A DNA stretch of 64,000 nucleotides from Candidatus Saccharimonadia bacterium (GCA_023253175.1 JALRHH010000002.1:128199-192198); one strand, 5' to 3'. Counted from the first letter of the stretch, positions 1,890 to 45,652 are shown. Program-made: numbers and translations. The notes: a model not told the origin generated them from the sequence alone.

Positions 1890-3764
1890 CTAGTACAGTG
1901 CGGCTGCTTTTGGAAGAATTGATCCGTTCAGGATTTCAATGACTTCTTCAGCTTCTACGGTTTCCTTCTCAAGCAAGGCCTTCTTTAGCTCCTCGAGCTT
2001 TGGCTTATTCGCCTTGATCACTTCGCGGGCGCGCACGGCAGCCTCGGTAATCAATGCTTCAACCTCATCATCAATAACCTTGGCTGTTTCATCGGAATAT
2101 TGCTTTTCGTGAACCATGCGCTCCAGCATCATACCTTCTTCAACATGGAATACCTGATCACGAAGCTTTTGACCCATTCCTTGGTTAACAACCATTTCCC
2201 GGGCTAGTTCAGCCGCTTTCTGAAGATCAGACCCAGCACCAGTCGTTACTCGGTCCTTACCATACATAACTTCTTCGGCGATACGACCACCAAGCATACG
2301 CGCGAGCACATCCTTGTATTCAACAATACTGTGGTAACTCTTGTCTTCTGGTGGAATAAACCATGTTACGCCACCAGTACCACCACGTGGAATAATTGTC
2401 ACCTTGTGCACCATGTCGCTGTCAGGAAGTACATGACCAACAATCGCGTGACCAGCTTCGTGATACGCAGTCAGCTCCTTTTCCTTGTCGCTCATGATCT
2501 TGCCCTTGCGCTCTGGACCAATCGCAACCTTCTCAAAGGCTGCAGTTACGTCAGCTTGGGTAATTTCTTTACTGTTGTGACGCGCTGCAACAATTGCAGA
2601 TTCGTTTGCAATATTTGCGAGATCAGCACCAGATGAGCCAGCAGTCTTTGCAGCCAAAGCATCAAGATCAACAGACTTAGATGCAGGCTTTTTCTCAAAG
2701 TGCTTCTTAAGAATTGCCTCGCGCTCCTTGCGGTCTGGCAAACCAACGGTCACACGGCGATCGAAACGGCCCGGACGAAGCAGTGCTGGATCAAGCACGT
2801 CAACACGGTTGGTTGCAGCGATCACGATAACATTCGCACCTTGCTCGAATCCGTCCATCTCGGTCAAGATCTGGTTAAGTGTCTGTTCACGCTCGTCATG
2901 TCCACCGCCCATTCCAGAACCACGGCGACGTCCAACCGCATCAATCTCATCAATAAAGATAATGCACGGTGCATTCTTTTTGGCCTTCGCAAATAGGTCA
3001 CGAACACGGCTTGCACCCACACCAACAAACATTTCCACAAATTCTGAACCAGAAATACTAAAGAATGGTACGTCAGCTTCACCAGCAACTGCGCGGGCGA
3101 TCATCGTCTTACCGGTTCCAGGAGGGCCAACTAACAGCACTCCCTTTGGAATCTTAGCGCCAACAGATTCAAATTTTTTAGGGAACTTCAGGAATTCTAC
3201 AACTTCTTCGAGATCCTGCTTTGACTCCTGGTAGCCAGCAATATCCTTGAAACTAACCTTACCCTTTTCGTTTCCGTATAAACGAGCTCTGCTCTTACCA
3301 AAGCTCATCGCCTGGTTACCCTGACCCTGGGCGCTGCGCATCATGAACAGCAGCACACCGATAATCAACACGACTGGCAACATGGTCAGCAGTACACTAC
3401 CCCATATCGAACCTGACTTTGATTCTTCTTTGTATTCGACATCAACCTTACCGTAGTCAACGCCTTCTTCTCGGAGACTCACGTTCGAGTTAACGCGTGA
3501 CTTTAATGTGGGCTCGTTCTTTCCCTGTTCTGTAATTTCCAGAGCAGCACCAGTAACTACGATTTTCTTATACTTACCATCATTAACTTGTTGAATTACT
3601 TCACTAAGGTCAACTTCTTTAAGCTGCTGCTTGTTATTGCCATAGGAGCCAAAAATGATTAATCCGATAAGTACGAGCAACGCGATGAAACCAGCGTTCT
3701 TAATCGTACGCTTTTTCTGGTCACCCCCACTTTTCTTTGATGTGCGAAAAGGTTTTTTATCCAT
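1890..3764 (-). CDS. ftsH: ATP-dependent zinc metalloprotease FtsH
   Basis: Walker A GPPGTGKT, Walker B IIFIDEID, second region of homology, HEAGH zinc site, N-terminal TM segments. Confidence 0.96.
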
Positions 3765-3798
3765 GTCTATCCATTATACAGATGAGATTACTTGTTGG

Positions 3799-4686
3799 CT
3801 AGCGGTCAGGATGCTCGAGTGCCAGGTACGTCTTATGGATTCGCATCTTCACGCCTTTTTGCACATCCACTATTGCGCCCGGGAAGAATGTCTTACCCGC
3901 AACGACTAATCTTTCGAGAGTCTTTTGATCAAAATCACGAATGCCCTGCTGCCTCAGCCATGCAGCCATGACTTCTCGGGAAACGGCATGAGATAGCCTG
4001 TTGAATTGGCGCCTATCAACCGTGCCCCCTTTTGATTGCAAGTGAAGAAAATGCAGCAGCTGCTCATCGAGATCATCGTTAACTTGGTGCATCCGTTTAA
4101 TAACCTCGCCGAGCCGCTGCCTGTCTTCCGGTGCAAGCTGCGGTAGAATTTTGTGCCGGATGTAATTTCTAAGCAACCGAATATCGGTATTCGTACTATC
4201 CTCGCGCCAAACAAGACCCTGGTCCTGCGCATAGCGGCGAATATCATCTTTTGCTATGTGCAGTATTGGTCGATGGATATTTGTCCGCGACCGAAGTGCA
4301 GTCAGGCCCTTCCTGTTTGTGCCGCGCAGCATATTAAGCACTGCTGTCTCAAGCGCATCGTTATGGTGATGGGCGGTAATAATAGCCTTAGCGCCACTCG
4401 CCCTCCGGACATTGTGCAAGAATTCATACCTTGCTCTACGGGCTACATCTTCACTCGCCGCTGGTCCTAGGTTGCCTTCGTGGTACACGAATGGAATACC
4501 GTACTGCTCAGAAGCGTGCTGCACAAGCTGCCTATCCAAATGTGAGTCACTCCGGATACCATGATCGAAATGGGCGGCAATAAGTTTTAGATCCGGCTGA
4601 TTTGCAAGCGCATGAAGTAGCGCCATACTGTCGACCCCACCCGACACGGCCACCACATATAACCCTGGCTGTACATCCACCTTCAT
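3799..4686 (-). CDS. tilS: tRNA(Ile)-lysidine synthase TilS
   Basis: PP-loop motif VAVSGGVDS near the N-terminus, and the conserved tilS-ftsH neighbourhood. Start placed at MKVDVQPG (ATG 4686) to avoid a 27-nt head-on overlap with the divergent gene. The track start 4737 is the alternative. Confidence 0.8.
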   Translation of the reverse strand: MKVDVQPGLYVVAVSGGVDSMALLHALANQPDLKLIAAHFDHGIRSDSHLDRQLVQHASEQYGIPFVYHEGNLGPAASEDVARRARYEFLHNVRRASGAKAIITAHHHNDALETAVLNMLRGTNRKGLTALRSRTNIHRPILHIAKDDIRRYAQDQGLVWREDSTNTDIRLLRNYIRHKILPQLAPEDRQRLGEVIKRMHQVNDDLDEQLLHFLHLQSKGGTVDRRQFNRLSHAVSREVMAAWLRQQGIRDFDQKTLERLVVAGKTFFPGAIVDVQKGVKMRIHKTYLALEHPDR

Positions 4687-4710: not shown

Positions 4711-5238
4711 ATGAAGACACTTTATTTTATGCGGCACGGATTAACCGAGATGAATGTCGCCGGCAAATGGTCGGGCAGAACCGAAACCTCTCTTACCCAA
4801 GAAGGACGAGACCAGGCAAAGCTTGCGGGCAAAGCTGCCAAAGATCTTTCTATTGATGCAATTGTCTGCTCAACGATGGGCCGCGCTGTAGAAACCGCCG
4901 AGATTGTGGCTAAGGAGATCGGTTACCCACTTGATCAAATACATAAGAGTAGCTTGCTCATCGAGCGAGATTTTGGCTCGTTCGAAGGCACGCCATGGCA
5001 ACCAGATCTGGACCTTGATGGATTTGCAGATGTGGAATCAGTGGATACCCTAAAAAACAGAGCGATCCTGGCCCTGGAATGGGTTGAATCAATCCCAGGC
5101 GATACTATACTGATTGTCAGCCACGGCGCGACCGGAAGAATGCTCCGCCATGTCGTCGATTCAAGTATCCCCTTCAAAGGAGCGAGTAGATTTAGCAATG
5201 CCGAGATCCACGAACTCAAGCGAACCCCAGAGGTTTAA
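4711..5238 (+). CDS. Histidine phosphatase (phosphoglycerate mutase) family protein
   Basis: Catalytic RHG motif (YFMRHGLTEMN) and distal SHG (IVSHGATGR). Confidence 0.8.
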   Translation: MKTLYFMRHGLTEMNVAGKWSGRTETSLTQEGRDQAKLAGKAAKDLSIDAIVCSTMGRAVETAEIVAKEIGYPLDQIHKSSLLIERDFGSFEGTPWQPDLDLDGFADVESVDTLKNRAILALEWVESIPGDTILIVSHGATGRMLRHVVDSSIPFKGASRFSNAEIHELKRTPEV

Positions 5239-5251
5239 GCCTGAAAAATAC

Positions 5252-5280
5252 TAGCCAACAGATGTAAAATCTGCTATATT
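5252..5280 (+). promoter_or_regulatory. Candidate sigma70-type promoter of the tRNA(CAT) locus
   Basis: TAGCCA (5252-5257), 17-nt spacer, TATATT (5275-5280). It lies 17 nt upstream of the first tRNA-derived base at 5297. Confidence 0.4.
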
Positions 5281-5325
5281 AACGGCTGATTCTCATGGCG
5301 GCGTAGCTCAGTTGGTTAGAGCGCA

Positions 5326-5443
5326 TTAATAATTCAGAATTTTTTTGGGGCGGCGTAGCTCAGTTGGTTAGAGCGCAGGACTCATAAGCCTGAGGTCACA
5401 GGTTCGAACCCCGTCGCCGCTACCAAAAAAGCGCTGAATTATT
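5326..5443 (+). repeat. Insert 1 of the dissected tRNA: inverted-repeat-bounded segment that carries the intact tRNA
   Basis: Perfect 11-bp inverted repeat TAATAATTCAG (5327-5337) / CTGAATTATTA (5434-5444). A T7 run (5340-5346) and an A-run (5425-5430) immediately flank the tRNA. Confidence 0.75.
5349..5425 (+). tRNA. tRNA with CAT anticodon (elongator Met or lysidine-dependent Ile2), CCA encoded
   Basis: Hand-folded cloverleaf: acceptor GGCGGCG/CGCCGCT, D arm GCTC-AGTTGGTTA-GAGC, anticodon loop CTCATAA, T arm ACAGG-TTCGAAC-CCCGT, then ACCA. There is one A-G mismatch at 31-39. Confidence 0.9.
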
Positions 5444-5673
5444 AGGACTCATATTCGAGGACGCGCGCAGGGGCTTGCGCCGAGCACGCCGCAAGAATAT
5501 ATGCAATATAAGCCTGTCGCGCCTTGCGCTCAGCATCTGTGATATATAAAGTTAACGCGTATTAGTTCGCCGACACCACTCACCCGTCCAATTAGCGTGA
5601 ACTCAGAAACTTCCCAAGTTTCTTCAGGTCACAGGTTCGAACCCCGTCGCCGCTACCATATAGAATATTTGTG

Positions 5674-5705
5674 AAAATGACGACTTTTTGGTCGTCATTT
5701 TTGTG
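5674..5705 (+). terminator. Intrinsic terminator after the tRNA locus
   Basis: Stem ATGACGAC (5677-5684) / GTCGTCAT (5691-5698), loop TTTTTG, followed by a T-run and preceded by an A-run. Confidence 0.7.
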
Positions 5706-5719
5706 TTTTTATACTACTT

Positions 5720-6736
5720 ATGGTGTTTAATATGCAATTCGTTTACAAAATAACAAGGATCGTTGCAAAGTATTTCAACCGGGCGTATATCAGAAGTAGG
5801 ACTTCTGAAGCCATGTCAGAGCTAAACAAACATTTAGAAACAATAAAAGGTCCCTTACTCACCGCTGGAATTGCCTCGGCAATTGGTGCGATTACCTTTA
5901 AAGCGGATCAATATTTCGGATCCAAAAGTGCCCACAGCGAACATGGGCCAGAATTAGACCTAGCGATTACCGAAAGACTAGGCGCCACCAAAACACTTGT
6001 CTTGCTTGGGGGCCTGTGTATGAATGGCGAGGAACTGGCATCGCAGTATCAAAAGGAGCTAGCAGATGACGTCAATCTCATTACGCCCGTATATGACAGT
6101 AATGGCTTCGACGGACCGTCGTTATTCGAGCAACTATATGACCAACTTGATAACACACCCACCGATGATATCGTCATCGCAGGCTTGTCTATGGGTGGCC
6201 TCATTGCTTGGGATATGATCGATTACGGTATAAAAAATGGCAGGCAGGACACGACCGAAAAGATATCTCATGTCATATTGCGCGGTGTGCCTGTTTGTCC
6301 AAAATCTATACGGCCCGGGCCGAGACTGTTACTCAACACAGTACAGCGCCTCGGCTACAGCTATGCACTCGATCATAGCCGACCCCTACTCCGCCGCTGG
6401 AACTGTGTCTCTCTACTCAAGGCAACACCCGCTGCGATTGTAGAACAGTGCAGATACCTCGCAGGCCCGCATACCAACAACCTAGAATCTTTACCGGATC
6501 AAGTAACTTTTGTGCGCGGAGTATTGCCGGATCCTGTCGTTGATGAAAGCATTGCAATCGGCACCTTGCAGCGACAGCTAGGCCGCCCGGTTCATGAAGT
6601 TATCGATAGTGAATACCTACTCCCTGTTCACGCGCCAACAGACAGACAGTCGGTGAGGTTCATGTTAGAGCAGCTCGGCATCGCCAAATCCCACACGCAG
6701 CAAATACCCGCTATTTCTCTACAAGTAGCAGCCTAG
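5720..6736 (+). CDS. Alpha/beta-hydrolase-fold protein (putative esterase/lipase); start uncertain
   Basis: Nucleophile-elbow motif GLSMGG within IVIAGLSMGGLIAW. Alternative starts are 5732 and 5813. Confidence 0.55.
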   Translation: MVFNMQFVYKITRIVAKYFNRAYIRSRTSEAMSELNKHLETIKGPLLTAGIASAIGAITFKADQYFGSKSAHSEHGPELDLAITERLGATKTLVLLGGLCMNGEELASQYQKELADDVNLITPVYDSNGFDGPSLFEQLYDQLDNTPTDDIVIAGLSMGGLIAWDMIDYGIKNGRQDTTEKISHVILRGVPVCPKSIRPGPRLLLNTVQRLGYSYALDHSRPLLRRWNCVSLLKATPAAIVEQCRYLAGPHTNNLESLPDQVTFVRGVLPDPVVDESIAIGTLQRQLGRPVHEVIDSEYLLPVHAPTDRQSVRFMLEQLGIAKSHTQQIPAISLQVAA

Positions 6737-7935: not shown

Positions 7936-8209
7936 ACCTACCTCCGTATTACACCATCAGCATACCAAGCAGCGGAGGCTACTTTCAGTTGGAATTATTA
8001 CAACCTATGTATTATTTGCCGCGGCGAGCAATATTACTTAGGCGCATTTTTGCCTGGGGTATTTGCGGGGCAAAACCGGTACGACCCTGCATCTTTGCTA
8101 TATTCTTAGAAAATTTGTCAGCGCTGTGTTTACCCATATTTTGCCCTTTGTTTAGTAGACAATACTATATGCCCGTAGCGTAAAATTCTCAGTGATTTTT
8201 CTCACGAGT

Positions 8210-9799
8210 TTAATGAGTAGCTTCGGACGCCATCGCATCCTTGTGATCACCGCCTAGCGGCTGCTCGCGGAGGAACAGAGCTACGATAAAGGCAGCAACC
8301 GCAAATGGGATGGCATACATAAACATATCCTGGAACGCGGACACATACCCGGCCAGTACCTGCTGTTTAACCGCATCTGGCAGGTGCGCTACGCCGCTCG
8401 CAATTACCGACCCTTCACCCCCGCCCGTGTTCACACCCGCGCCGCCAAGGTAGTGTGTTAATCGGGCAACAAGAATACTTCCAAATATCGCACCACCCAA
8501 ACTTCCACCAATACTTCTAAAGAATGTCACAGATGAGGTTGCCGCACCAAGATCAGATTTAGCGGCAGAATTCTGTACTGCCAAAATTGCAACCTGCATA
8601 AAGCTACCAAGTCCCGCACCAATTACCAGCATCCATAGCGACATCGTACGGTGGCTTGTTGTTAATGTTAGGTGACTAAAGAGCCAGAGCCCGAACGTTA
8701 AAAGTGCTGTGCCGATTAGTGGGAATTTTCGGTACTTGCCAGTCTTAGAAATGATCCGACCAGAAATGATCGACGCGCTCAGAATTCCCAGAACAAGTGG
8801 CAGCATCAATAGCCCAGATTCTGTCGGAGAATTACCGCGTACAATCTGCTGATACTGCGGGATGTACAAAATACTTGCGAACATGGCGATTCCAGAAAGA
8901 ATCGAAAGCAGAGTCGATGTGACGAAAATATCATTTTTAAATAACCGCAGTGGGATGATCGGCTCTGCGGCGCGAGATTCCTGCCATATAAACAGACCCG
9001 TAAAGACAACAGCCGTAATGGCTAATCCAATTATTTCGGCCGAAGCCCATGCGTACTGTAAACCACCCCAAACCGATACCAGTAGCAAGCTAACGGCTGC
9101 AACAGACAGCAGCGCAGCCCCCGTATAATCGATGCGGTGTGGACTGCGCCTTACCGGCAAATGCAGCTGCGTACTAATTGCGTACAGTGCCAAAAGTCCA
9201 AGCGGCACATTAATAAAGAAGATCCAGTGCCAGCTGAGGTGGTCCGTAAAGAGGCCACCGAGCAGTGGACCAGCCACACTGGATATCGCAAAGACCGCCC
9301 CAAAATAACCCTGGTACTTACCTCGCTGTTTCATTGGCACAACCTCGCCAACAATTGCAAACACAAGTGCCATCAGACCACCACCGCCCAGTCCCTGAAT
9401 TGCACGAAAGGCAATGAGCTGTTCCATATTCTGCGCCAGACCACACAGCACTGATCCAATTAGGAATATTGAAATTGCTGTTAGGAATATTTTCTTGCGG
9501 CCAAACATATCACCTAACTTGCCGTAAATTGGCGTCACGATTGCACTAGCCAGGAGGTACGATGTTGCCACCCATGACAGTTTGTCGAGGCCATGCAAAT
9601 CAACCGCAATCTGCGGCAATGCAGTCGAAACAATTGTTTGATCCAACGATGCTAGCAGCATCGCGAGCATCAATGCACCAATCACCACCATAATTTCTCG
9701 GTGACTGCGCTCGTAGTTTTCATCTGTGTGCGGGTGCGGCTCTTTTTGAGCGCGACCTGCTTCTTTGCGCCTTTTAACAAGCGCTTTTATCTTTTCCAT
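8210..9799 (-). CDS. MFS transporter, DHA2 (EmrB/QacA-like, 14-TMS) drug:H+ antiporter family
   Basis: Motif GKLGDMFGRKK and about 14 hydrophobic segments. Start moved to MEKIK (ATG 9799), because the track start 9850 overlaps the upstream marR gene. Confidence 0.85.
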   Translation of the reverse strand: MEKIKALVKRRKEAGRAQKEPHPHTDENYERSHREIMVVIGALMLAMLLASLDQTIVSTALPQIAVDLHGLDKLSWVATSYLLASAIVTPIYGKLGDMFGRKKIFLTAISIFLIGSVLCGLAQNMEQLIAFRAIQGLGGGGLMALVFAIVGEVVPMKQRGKYQGYFGAVFAISSVAGPLLGGLFTDHLSWHWIFFINVPLGLLALYAISTQLHLPVRRSPHRIDYTGAALLSVAAVSLLLVSVWGGLQYAWASAEIIGLAITAVVFTGLFIWQESRAAEPIIPLRLFKNDIFVTSTLLSILSGIAMFASILYIPQYQQIVRGNSPTESGLLMLPLVLGILSASIISGRIISKTGKYRKFPLIGTALLTFGLWLFSHLTLTTSHRTMSLWMLVIGAGLGSFMQVAILAVQNSAAKSDLGAATSSVTFFRSIGGSLGGAIFGSILVARLTHYLGGAGVNTGGGEGSVIASGVAHLPDAVKQQVLAGYVSAFQDMFMYAIPFAVAAFIVALFLREQPLGGDHKDAMASEATH

Positions 9800-13073: not shown

Positions 13074-13148
13074 CGCGGGGTAGAGCAGTGGCAGCTCGTG
13101 TGGCTCATAACCACAAGGTCGCAGGTTCGAGTCCTGCCCCCGCTACCA
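13074..13148 (+). tRNA. Initiator tRNA-fMet (CAT), CCA encoded
   Basis: 5' CGCGGGG with a C1-U72 mismatch, D arm GAGC-AGTGGCA-GCTC, anticodon loop CTCATAA, T arm GCAGG-TTCGAGT-CCTGC. Close resemblance to E. coli tRNA-fMet. Confidence 0.9.
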
Positions 13149-13183: not shown

Positions 13184-13231
13184 TTGGTCATGAAGCTGAT
13201 ACGGATCTGTGACCAACCAGCTTTAGCTGGC

Positions 13232-13321
13232 AAGGTCGTAGGTTCGGTCGACAAGCCTGCTCACAGGAATTCATTCCGAGAACAAGTGCAGTCGTGCGCT
13301 GCCTGCCCCCGCTATCACAGG
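13232..13321 (+). pseudogene. Broken duplicates of the 3' half of tRNA-fMet
   Basis: AAGGTCGTAGGTTCGGTC...CCTGC (13232-13260) and CCTGCCCCCGCTATCA (13302-13317) match the tRNA's AAGGTCGCAGGTTCGAGTCCTGCCCCCGCTACCA with 3 substitutions and inserted segments. Both parts are followed by TCACAGG. Confidence 0.6.
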
Positions 13322-25590: not shown

Positions 25591-25666
25591 GGGGGTGTAG
25601 CTCAGGGGTTAGAGCAGTCGGCTCATAACCGATTGGTCGCTGGTTCGAACCCAGCCACCCCCACCA
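25591..25666 (+). tRNA. tRNA with CAT anticodon (elongator Met or Ile2), CCA encoded
   Basis: Acceptor GGGGGTG/CACCCCC, D arm GCTC-AGGGGTTA-GAGC, anticodon arm GTCGG-CTCATAA-CCGAT, T arm GCTGG-TTCGAAC-CCAGC. Confidence 0.9.
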
Positions 25667-44110: not shown

Positions 44111-45652
44111 CTATTTTATTTCTATGTCTTCGCCGAAGTGTTTTTCTAGTCTCTTTTTGATGCTGCCTGGATGGCGGCCGAAATGATTACTTAACATGTT
44201 AAGTGTTTCTTTGTTTTCAAATCTTGACTTCAACTCTTCATCGTCCGCTTCTTTCCACGGCATGTAGGCATTTGGGAATTCTTCGCGCATTTTGGCGAGC
44301 TTTTCCGACCAATCAGATTTTGGCTTTTCAGGTACCTCTTCTTCTGGCTGATCCTTTCGCTTTTCCTCGTCCTGGTGCCACTTTTCAATGACCGCAGCAT
44401 AGGTTGCCAGCGCATCATCGCTGCGTTTCCGCAGTTCACTGTCAATTTGCCTTGCGAGCGGGCTTGTCTTTAGTGCCATACCATTCAGTCCATCCAGCGC
44501 CAGCTGTTTCATGCTCTTCACACGAGAAAGCGCAACATACCCCATGCCTTCGACAAACGCGCGGCGCAGGTCAATATGTGCTGCATCCAACGTCATGCCC
44601 TGGCTCTTGTGCACTGTGATCGCCCATGCAAGGCGAATTGGTAGCTGCGTCAGTGTTGCCCGGCGCTTGTCGCCATCAACGAGCTCCCAAGTCTCAGGTG
44701 AAATCGTTAGCTTGCGGCCATTATTTAGTTGCACAATTGGATACTCAGTTTCATCATCAAACCCTACCACCACACCAAGCGATCCATTCACGTATTTGCG
44801 GTCCTGGCTGTTTTTAATACACATGACGTGCGCGCCTTTTTTCAGGAACAGAACTTCGGGCGCCAAGCATGATCGCATTAACTGCTCTACATATTTTTTG
44901 CCGCCACTTGTTTCCATGCTGTATTCGTACATGTCACCATCAAGTCTCTGCAGTTCGCCGTCATTAATGCGATCAACATCAGCATTGGTTGTCAGCAACC
45001 TTGTACGAGGCGTGAATGGATCAAGGGCAACTTCAATCCTATCCTGCAGAGCGGTTAGTTGATTACGCGTCAGTACGCCGCCACGGATGCCGTTTAGGAT
45101 TTGGGCATAGGTGTCGTCTTCACTCTGACGATACTGCTTCTCCAGGTAGCAGACTGCAAAATCCCCATCTTGCCATGCACTCGAAGACAGCACAAAACTA
45201 CCACTGCGGCCCTCTGATCGGTTTACTGGAGGCAACTGGAAGAAATCACCGACCAGCACGACCTGTAGCCCGCCAAACGGCTCGGCATTTCCGCGGACGT
45301 ACCGAGTAACTTCCTCGATCATGTCCAACCGAAAGTCATGGAGCATACTGATCTCGTCGATAATTAGAATATCTGCCTTGGCTATCAAACCTTGCCGCTG
45401 CTTACCAAGCTTCTGAAAAAAGAGCTGCGGAAGCTCGTCATGTACACCGATGCCTGCCCATGCATGAATAGTGGCACCGTTCAGGTGCGTCGCAGCCAGT
45501 CCGGTCGTGGCTGTTACGGCGATGCTCTTGCCCCGGCGTTTGCTACGACGAATAAACTCATTCATGAGATACGTCTTACCGGTACCAGCTGCACCTGTTA
45601 ACAGGACCGACTGGCCCGACTCTAAAATAGCTAAAGCTTCTGCCTGCGTCAT
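44111..45652 (-). CDS. PIF1/RecD-type superfamily-1 DNA helicase
   Basis: Walker A LLTGAAGTGKTY, Walker B ILIIDEISM, LVGDFFQLPPV, and C-terminal ITVHKSQGMT motifs. Confidence 0.85.
   Translation of the reverse strand: MTQAEALAILESGQSVLLTGAAGTGKTYLMNEFIRRSKRRGKSIAVTATTGLAATHLNGATIHAWAGIGVHDELPQLFFQKLGKQRQGLIAKADILIIDEISMLHDFRLDMIEEVTRYVRGNAEPFGGLQVVLVGDFFQLPPVNRSEGRSGSFVLSSSAWQDGDFAVCYLEKQYRQSEDDTYAQILNGIRGGVLTRNQLTALQDRIEVALDPFTPRTRLLTTNADVDRINDGELQRLDGDMYEYSMETSGGKKYVEQLMRSCLAPEVLFLKKGAHVMCIKNSQDRKYVNGSLGVVVGFDDETEYPIVQLNNGRKLTISPETWELVDGDKRRATLTQLPIRLAWAITVHKSQGMTLDAAHIDLRRAFVEGMGYVALSRVKSMKQLALDGLNGMALKTSPLARQIDSELRKRSDDALATYAAVIEKWHQDEEKRKDQPEEEVPEKPKSDWSEKLAKMREEFPNAYMPWKEADDEELKSRFENKETLNMLSNHFGRHPGSIKKRLEKHFGEDIEIK

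Follow-up and report, generated by a model that had tools for sequence, protein, structure and literature searches.

A tRNA-Met gene with a complementary leader and trailer, nested within an interrupted copy of itself, in one clade of Saccharibacteria

Interrupted and rearranged transfer RNA (tRNA) genes are known in several forms. Archaea possess multi-intron, split and permuted tRNA genes with bulge-helix-bulge introns at the canonical position 37/38 and at non-canonical sites; partial tRNA duplications (attL and attR) flank integrated genomic islands, and Williams is said to have set out in 2002 sublocation classes for tRNA integration; and tRNA genes interrupted in the anticodon loop have been published from the same phylum-level group as the organism considered here. 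A separate kind of structure is seen in bacterial ribosomal RNA (rRNA) operons, where leader-trailer helices are substrates of RNase III (PMC10250234). We describe here a tRNA-Met locus of Candidatus Saccharimonadia bacterium, contained in a stretch of 64,000 nucleotides (nt) that we refer to as the window (GCA_023253175.1 JALRHH010000002.1:128199-192198), which can be placed with two known kinds of arrangement, the leader-trailer processing helices and the rearranged tRNA genes. Neither a nested tRNA nor this helix was found described in the literature searched.

The locus contains an intact elongator-type tRNA-Met(CAT) gene which, together with the complementary sequences on either side of it, forms a 119 nt insert (insert 1) that interrupts a second, outer copy of the same tRNA at the 5' strand of its anticodon stem. 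Three inserts in total cut the outer copy, and its four pieces, taken in order, rebuild the full 77 nt tRNA, each of them 100% identical to the inner gene; the clean interruption by insert 1 described in a first-pass annotation of this DNA is confirmed. The inner tRNA shares 85-86% identity with E. coli genes that carry the annotation tRNA-Met (median two places per genome); judged from its sequence it is a functional tRNA-Met gene, and we read it as the elongator species. The interpretation that we favour, and to which we give somewhat better than an even chance, is that insert 1 is a working elongator tRNA-Met gene with its own complementary leader and trailer, whose precursor helix of ~22 base pairs (bp) is selected at the RNA level, and which is nested in a dead copy of the same gene.

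The locus resembles archaeal interrupted tRNAs in its clean cuts at multiple sites, including the anticodon stem and a position just 3' of the anticodon, and in the complementary flanks that juxtapose the halves. It differs in that the host is bacterial (MurJ, FtsH, TilS), a whole tRNA makes up the largest 'intron', relatives show decay of the interrupted copy, and there is no bulge-helix-bulge. Both junctions of insert 1 lie at the base of an uninterrupted 12 bp helix in the minimum-free-energy fold, and at insert 2 inspection revealed no 4 bp helix between nt 32-35 and the intron 3' end; an archaeal-type tRNA intron is rejected on structure. The published genes of the same phylum-level group share with this locus an interruption of the anticodon loop, but the inserts here are 54-119 nt long and match no intron model (E up to 10), the positions and architecture differ, and nested tRNAs are not described in that paper. 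Rfam searches of 5200-5760 at E up to 10 returned only tRNA and noise, with no intron or ribozyme family, and a group I intron is rejected since no covariance-model match was found either in this region or in relatives. At gathering thresholds, the search of the whole window returned no family besides tRNAs at the locus, as was also true of ten related loci; far from it, on the opposite strand, 55910-55989 matches the AdoCbl-II (cobalamin) riboswitch aptamer barely above the gathering score (39.5 versus 36.5 bits).

The sequences bounding the inner gene had been noted as an 11 bp perfect inverted repeat, and both the sequence and a repeat finder show TAATAATTCAG (5327-5337) to be the exact reverse complement of CTGAATTATTA (5434-5444). 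The pairing is longer than this, extending over 22 nt (5327-5348 with 5423-5444) with 86% complementarity and a spacer of 74 nt. In its inner half a T7 run (5340-5346) faces an A6 run (5425-5430), as had been observed, and the T7 run with the following GG (5340-5348) pairs with CCAAAAAAG (5423-5431); the GG at 5347-5348 pairs with C74 and C75 of the inner tRNA's CCA, and the helix is continuous with the acceptor stem. The folding energy of RNA 5297-5460, which the annotation had proposed computing, is -56.4 kcal/mol (z = -3.35 versus shuffles), and the predicted fold has 12 bp and 9 bp segments with a 2x2 internal loop between them. The 1 nt ambiguity at the junctions (A5325 / A5444) is real. 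The GCGC said to precede both arms is literally present, but is asymmetric (C5434 already being arm sequence) and absent in relatives; we reject it as a signal and treat it as coincidence. We also rejected the T7 run as an intrinsic terminator or attenuator, there being no adjoining G+C-rich stem.

Perfect 11-mer inverted repeats with spacers of up to 150 nt are not rare in the window (22 versus a shuffle mean of 2.2), and most are short-loop terminators. What decides against chance is conservation: in seven other lineages the orthologous tRNA lies between the same arms, with compensatory changes. The only other perfect inverted repeat of at least 11 nt with a long spacer (~83 nt), GATCGCATTAAC and ATTAATGCGATC at 44870-44881 / 44964-44975, lies in what reads as coding DNA and is probably fortuitous. 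Three tRNA(CAT) genes are present within 21 kb of the window: the elongator-type tRNA-Met at 5349, an initiator-like gene at 13074 (with a C1xA72 mismatch), and a gene at 25591 which we take to resemble E. coli ileX. Leader-trailer pairing was not found at the latter two, the window's other tRNAs, and we reject the helix as a general trait of this genome's tRNAs.

Relatives were gathered by way of the neighbour proteins, by an arm-pattern scan of 185,579 species genomes and by a tRNA-anchored scan of JGI metagenomes; where they must be told apart, their loci are given as L-numbers. The order FtsH-TilS-His_Phos-tRNA is common to the window and its relatives, and an elongator tRNA-Met adjoins tilS across Saccharibacteria. 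Four other loci (L010, L014, L018 and L114) have the same nest at the same syntenic site. The arms and tRNA are kept in L020, where the outer pieces are almost erased, and in L048, where they are gone, while L115 and L113+L008 (two contigs of one sample, joined by inference) have an un-nested gene with a leader-trailer helix of different sequence. A plain gene without the helix is found in L118 and in ~75 other Saccharibacteria loci, which share the first 44 nt of the tRNA. FtsH is 84-86% identical to that of the window in the nest loci measured (L010, L014 and L018) versus at most 76% in all plain loci, L048 groups with the nest loci by TilS (67%), and no loci are closer to the window in FtsH and TilS identity than those with the nest or the helix. 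These comparisons show a feature that is present in a single copy, keeps its synteny and is restricted to one Saccharibacteria clade, as expected of vertical inheritance.

The leaders of L115 and L113+L008 align without gaps and in register with the arms (using MAFFT), although the sequence differs. Because the arms align in this way with the ordinary leader and trailer of un-nested genes, they look like the inner gene's own leader and trailer rather than foreign ends, and the presence of the helix in un-nested relatives indicates that it probably predates the nest.

Two further arrangements of tRNA-Met were seen among the relatives. In L115 (3084-3320) the un-nested helix-bearing gene is followed by a partial second copy (~nt 37-65), a 95 nt insert containing a hairpin, nt 68-76, and an exact repeat of the 20 nt trailer. 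In L030 and L066 (~1575-1660 and ~726-811, respectively) and in L077 (~3790-3905), a 5' fragment of tRNA-Met (nt 1-19, to the D loop) is followed by ~95-105 nt and then a complete tRNA; the L077 spacer contains a promoter-like copy of the usual upstream motif.

The helix stands out in both energy and pattern of substitution. The leader-trailer duplex has a predicted energy of -23.9 kcal/mol in the window and from -16.6 to -30.6 kcal/mol for the inner-tRNA helices of the clade; in ~75 plain loci with the same tRNA the median is -5.7 and the best -11.6 kcal/mol. Among the seven sequences with type-B arms, four of the 22 arm pairs have changed on both sides, and when L115 and L113+L008 are added to give eight lineages, eight of the 22 pairs are compensatory, five one-sided and six invariant. 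Paired cells make up 83% of the total compared with 41-46% when the partner is slid, and the covariation score was reached by none of 500 shuffles, the set being eight related lineages and the shuffle control taking no account of kinship. Examples include a U5330-A5441 pair in the window where other lineages have C-G, AATTTAG/CTAAATT in L114 in place of the otherwise invariant core AATTCAG/CTGAATT, and ATTCTG/CAGAAT in L115. The alignments thus show arm pairing that is maintained by compensatory substitutions. The long RNA-level stem with the whole tRNA as its loop, suggested in the first-pass annotation, stands as a structure that is continuous with the acceptor stem and conserved with covariation.

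Two irregularities are also conserved: a U.G pair is present in six of the eight lineages (it is C-G in L014, and the partner column is a gap in L115), and the internal loop lies at the same columns in several lineages. Their persistence argues for RNA pairing of the transcribed strand and against continual correction of a DNA palindrome. The arms, moreover, persist where the adjoining outer pieces have decayed or been deleted (L010, L020 and L048), and conservation of the left arm is close to that of the promoter at divergences where TilS is only 55-67% identical.

The rRNA leader-trailer helices are among the closest of the described systems. In both, a stable RNA is flanked by a leader and a trailer that pair for about two helical turns, the mature RNA forms the loop within a longer transcript (a predicted one at the present locus), and the pairing is kept by covariation and not by sequence. 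Unlike the rRNA helices, that of the present locus encloses a single tRNA and not 16S or 23S rRNA, abuts the acceptor stem and includes the CCA, and is confined to one tRNA gene in one Saccharibacteria clade; a role for RNase III here is a prediction. From the single predicted promoter and terminator, we take the whole unit to be one transcript of ~420 nt. In this transcript the leader and trailer would form the ~22 bp precursor helix, stacked on the acceptor stem and taking in the CC of CCA, and selection on the RNA would maintain the helix for processing or for insulation. It could isolate the inner tRNA as its own folding domain despite the identical decoy half-tRNAs, and could provide a double-stranded entry site, most plausibly for RNase III, that frees the ends for RNase P and 3' trimming. 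By analogy with the rRNA leader-trailer helices (PMC10250234), a duplex of ~22 bp is of a size expected of an RNase III substrate. One study (PMC9433436) reports that bacterial RNase P is inhibited when the leader pairs with CCA, and because the leader is paired with the CCA end, the helix would have to be opened or cut before RNase P could act efficiently. A tblastn search with E. coli RNase III found no rnc homologue in the 64 kb window or the relatives' loci, which represent part of a genome and are uninformative on this point.

Several points weigh against this interpretation. The covariation is drawn from lineages that share ancestry, and one of them depends on the joining of two contigs. 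The helix is dispensable in evolution, as it is missing from the plain gene of L118 (in which His_Phos is 70% identical) and of most Saccharibacteria, and the window's two other tRNAs lack it too. With RNase P slowed by pairing of the leader to the CCA, the helix might also be a cost that is tolerated and not an aid. The sense strand is more stable than the antisense in seven of ten helices, which favours RNA- over DNA-level pairing only weakly, and template switching within a quasi-palindrome could yield compensatory double changes in one step without selection.

The last of these is the basis of the alternative that survives best, although we consider it unlikely: that the helix is a neutral by-product of DNA metabolism, in which intrastrand template switching (quasi-palindrome correction) builds the inverted repeat outwards from the tRNA's acceptor-stem palindrome and keeps it perfect, the nest came about through local rearrangement by chance, and no function belongs to either. 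It would account for arm sequences that differ by lineage (L113+L008, L115 and type B) as if repeatedly regenerated, for the 20 perfect pairs of L014, for loss of the helix without apparent harm in L118, for strand stabilities that do not always favour the sense strand, and for a locus that appears prone to rearrangement (L006 and L115). It does not fit the mismatches, internal loop and U.G pair, which stay uncorrected at the same columns, the outlasting of neighbouring outer pieces by the arms, the near-promoter conservation of the left arm, or the lack of any such extension at the genome's other tRNAs in the window.

The condition of the outer copy bears on how the nest arose. In L010 its acceptor and D arm are broken, in L020 it is barely recognisable, and substitutions in L114 (U8C) and L018 (C32G) both violate tRNA constraints; from this decay in several lineages the outer copy appears to have ceased working as a tRNA. 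In L010 and L014 the T stem of the outer copy is AGTG, an ancestral form common in other Saccharibacteria, and that of the inner gene is ACTAG. It follows that the outer copy was resident first and that the inner gene is the one in which evolution continued. The outer T arm of L014 is a chimera of old 5' and new 3' sequence, which suggests that the perfect identity of outer and inner copies in the window came about by gene conversion. L114 does not fit simple pseudogene decay: its outer acceptor (3567-3593 / 3860-3892) is GGCGATG / CATCGCT compared with the inner GGCGGCG / CGCCGCT, a difference of two compensatory pairs, and its outer copy has a leader-trailer helix of its own (-13 kcal/mol) despite U8C. 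Splicing of the outer halves is not supported, given the lack of a bulge-helix-bulge motif and an outer copy that is decayed (L010, L020) or mutated (L114, L018).

A plausible scenario is that a one-off nested duplication placed the helix-bounded gene unit into its own anticodon stem in the clade ancestor. The inserted unit is bounded exactly by the helix base, which suggests such a nested duplication, formally sL-a-[sL-a-b-sR]-b-sR. The nest would have been tolerated because the insert carried a complete replacement gene, and the outer copy, though nonfunctional, would still supply the sole promoter and sole terminator. The components of the unit are listed in Table 1. In a consensus scan the promoter is the only promoter-like site able to drive the locus, and no promoter or terminator was found inside the unit between it and the terminator; the motif CAACAG..AAATC.TG.TATATTA is kept upstream of tRNA-Met across Saccharibacteria loci. 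The ancestral downstream flank adjoins the outer 3' piece, as TATAGA..GAAAATGACGAC directly follows the contiguous tRNA in the relative L009. There is no open reading frame (ORF) of at least 40 amino acids within the locus. The upstream neighbours encode MurJ, FtsH, TilS and a histidine phosphatase (His_Phos), and those downstream a hydrolase-like protein of 338 amino acids and a NUDIX protein.

Table 1. Components of the nested tRNA-Met unit, in window coordinates.
Feature	Position	Strand	Remarks
Predicted promoter of whole unit	5252-5280	+	TAGCCA, 17 nt spacer, TATATT; TG before the -10 (extended -10)
Outer tRNA 5' piece, linear nt 1-29	5297-5325	+	100% identical to inner tRNA; missing in allele L006
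Left arm, 5' leader of inner tRNA	5326-5348	+	5327-5348 pair with 5423-5444
Inner intact elongator-type tRNA-Met(CAT), encoded CCA	5349-5425	+	ARAGORN and Rfam, 64.5 bits
Right arm, 3' trailer of inner tRNA	5426-5444	+	With CCA (5423-5425) pairs with left arm
Outer tRNA anticodon piece GGACTCATA	5445-5453	+	A5444 possibly included (AGGACTCATA, 5444/5-5453)
Insert 2, in anticodon loop after anticodon	5454-5507	+	Conserved structured hairpin module
Outer tRNA piece ATAAGCCTG	5508-5516	+	ATA common to 5451-5453
Insert 3, at end of anticodon stem	5517-5625	+	Lineage-specific
Outer tRNA 3' piece, 33 nt (variable loop, T arm, acceptor, CCA)	5626-5658	+	100% identical to inner tRNA
Predicted intrinsic terminator of whole unit	5670-5705	+	16-pair stem, then T run

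An assembly artefact is rejected, as the same sequence was obtained with independent assemblers and from independent samples: the locus is identical in L001/L004 (MEGAHIT, k141) and in L002 and L003 (Logan), and the structure is also seen with SPAdes. The Logan k=31 contigs of the window's own strain (L002, L003 and L005) stop inside the 29 nt and 33 nt tRNA repeats, as expected of a real repeat in k=31 assemblies. Contigs of the relatives L007-L009 begin inside the tRNA, and the locus systematically fragments short-k assemblies. In practical terms, the repeats break k=31 assemblies at the locus, and annotation tools list the inner gene only. A further allele, L006, is from another sample. Over 2,668 nt it differs from the window (100% identity otherwise) only by a 52 bp deletion between the 29 nt repeats, which removes one repeat and the left arm to leave a plain-looking gene followed by the right arm and remainder. 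This allele shows that the nest has been resolved by deletion between its direct repeats.

The first-pass annotation had likened insert 1, at the DNA level, to a miniature element with terminal inverted repeats and a tRNA as cargo. Such an element would be similar to a miniature inverted-repeat transposable element (MITE): a transposase would recognise the 11 bp repeats, and the element would have inserted into tRNA genes and could move between them. Insert 1 does resemble MITEs in being short and cleanly inserted, with perfect 11 bp repeats exactly at its ends. Short direct repeats also mark the junctions (a single A in the window; GCA at either side in L010, GAAC[GCA]TTAAC...GAATT[GCA]GGACT; ATAA flanking insert 2 in L014, L018 and L114), and the tRNA is an insertion hot spot in other lineages (L030, L066, L077, L037 and L092). 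The junction repeats in L010 and around insert 2 are suggestive, and an insertion-type origin is possible, but they are inconsistent between lineages as a target duplication and readable on one side only in L018 and L114. Unlike MITEs, moreover, insert 1 is single-copy, orthologous and vertically inherited, with a distribution that tracks phylogeny and synteny; the complementarity does not end at the termini but runs 22 nt inward to the CCA; un-nested genes have a leader and trailer to which the arms are homologous; and no transposase or integrase is among the genes within 5 kb of the locus.

Searches for further copies of the arms, with or without cargo, likewise returned none. The arms are absent elsewhere in the 64 kb of this genome that forms the window, and blastn of the locus against the rest of the window revealed no further copy of any insert. 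An exact pattern of the arms alone matched two Saccharibacteria loci in the 185,579 species genomes, both orthologous and single-copy, together with one chance match in a coding region; the nine loci matched in viral contigs are all chance occurrences, none with a tRNA, and in a phage collection only the tRNA itself was matched. The annotation had held that mobility would give way to local rearrangement if the repeat occurred nowhere else and relatives carried a simple tandem duplication; the repeat is indeed found nowhere else, but relatives carry the nest or a plain gene and not a tandem duplication. A mobile element of this type is, in our estimation, improbable.

We regard as equally improbable an integration scar, in which an element with a tyrosine integrase targeted the tRNA, leaving the inner tRNA as the gene restored on integration and the outer pieces and inserts as att fragments that were displaced and as element remnants. 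As with att-flanked islands, tRNA segments are directly repeated around inserted DNA, and the 33 nt repeat of the tRNA 3' end (5393-5425 / 5626-5658), with its second copy 233 nt downstream of the inner one, gives a classical attL/attR picture. Elsewhere the tRNA does seem to be a target: in L092 (~8207-9005) the tRNA-Met is broken near nt 51 and followed by an opposite-strand ORF whose end (..LGHANISTTMQIYQH) is tyrosine-recombinase-like by eye, and L037, L089 and window 13186-13316 share the arrangement of tRNA, terminator, module and 3' tRNA fragment, their modules having the motif of insert 2 in common. Integrase scars explain the irregularities at tRNA-Met in L092, L030/L066/L077, L037 and L089. 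For the window locus, however, a scar predicts a single displaced, contiguous 3' block, whereas the outer copy is a complete tRNA with three clean cuts and overlaps of 0-4 nt. Its 5' piece is present, with an end exactly complementary to the start of the next piece, and the arrangement is nested, in the form a x ab y b, x and y being complementary; the inverted-repeat flanks of the inner tRNA are left unexplained, and no recombinase gene or remnant adjoins the locus, the only integrase-like ORF being the distant one in L092.

The second and third inserts differ in their distribution. The hairpin of insert 2 is found in the window (5454-5507) and at L014 4533-4585, L018 7267-7314 and L114 3723-3775, and L010 also has the module; further copies are at L037 2366-2425, L089 1790-1850 and L063 1537-1574. 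Its consensus is AGCCACGCGCAGAAGYTYRCTTCGAGCATGGCT, with six of 11 pairs compensatory, and it adjoins tRNA-Met or, in L063, tRNA-Asn. A covariance model of insert 2 matches only the nest loci, L037, L089, L063 and, weakly, window 13240-13290; the motif has no match in Rfam and none in viral contigs. Insert 3 is lacking in L014 and of unrelated sequence in L018 and L114. The versions in those two loci (L018 7329-7405 and L114 3786-3859) are homologous to one another, and their first hairpin has the same UGCG loop on wholly different stems (GCCTCAG...CTGAGGC versus GAAATTTGAA...TTCAAATTTC).

A related module of ~130 nt, at window 13186-13316 (+), follows the initiator-like tRNA(CAT) gene (13074-13148) and its terminator. 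It ends in the neighbouring tRNA's own 3' fragment CCTGCCCCCGCTAtCA, followed by a second terminator-like hairpin, and aligns with the modules that follow tRNA-Met in L037 and L089. In the three-way alignment its 5' end pairs with this 3' fragment, and compensatory changes are seen at 13 of the 37 predicted pairs. Such modules could form a family of structured modules derived from tRNAs or be relics of integrated elements; insert 2 itself could be a small structured RNA or the end of an integrative element.

The modules invite another interpretation of the outer tRNA, which we rate as a shade less probable than either the mobile element or the integration scar: that it is not a dead gene but a member of an undescribed Saccharibacteria family of tRNA-derived structured RNAs. 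In the nested form, RNase P and 3' processing would release the inner tRNA ('tRNA punctuation'), and the remainder would be a tRNA-like RNA in two pieces that the 22 bp arms hold together. Members would adjoin tRNA genes, end in the 3' acceptor/CCA segment of that tRNA and share the insert 2 hairpin, as is the case at window 5297-5658 (tRNA-Met), 13186-13316 (initiator-like), L037 and L089 (tRNA-Met) and L063 (tRNA-Asn). Least probable of all, and very doubtful indeed, is a functional outer tRNA or tRNA-like RNA from which the inner tRNA is excised like an intron by RNase P and 3' processing, perhaps with loss of the other inserts as well, to give a spliced or two-piece molecule held by the arms: the identity of all four window pieces to the inner gene, the compensated acceptor and separate helix of L114, the covarying structure of insert 2 and of insert 3 in L018/L114, and predicted folds in which the outer acceptor helix closes the whole transcript would agree with it, but the junctions have no bulge-helix-bulge and match no known ribozyme or intron family, the outer copy is broken or mutated in four lineages (L010, L020, L114 and L018) and lacking in L048, L113+L008 and L118, insert 3 is unrelated between the window and L018/L114 and missing from L014, and gene conversion of the kind seen in L014 explains the identity equally well.

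If the helix of the inner tRNA-Met gene works as we propose, a genome-reduced episymbiont would mature an essential tRNA as other bacteria mature rRNA, by way of a leader-trailer stem, and a cleavage step upstream of RNase P would then be needed, given the reported hindrance by leader-CCA pairing. The locus is also a natural record of the harmless disruption of a single-copy essential RNA gene, in which the insert carried the replacement, and it shows the later fates of such a nest: decay, homogenisation by gene conversion, and resolution by deletion between repeats of 29-33 nt.

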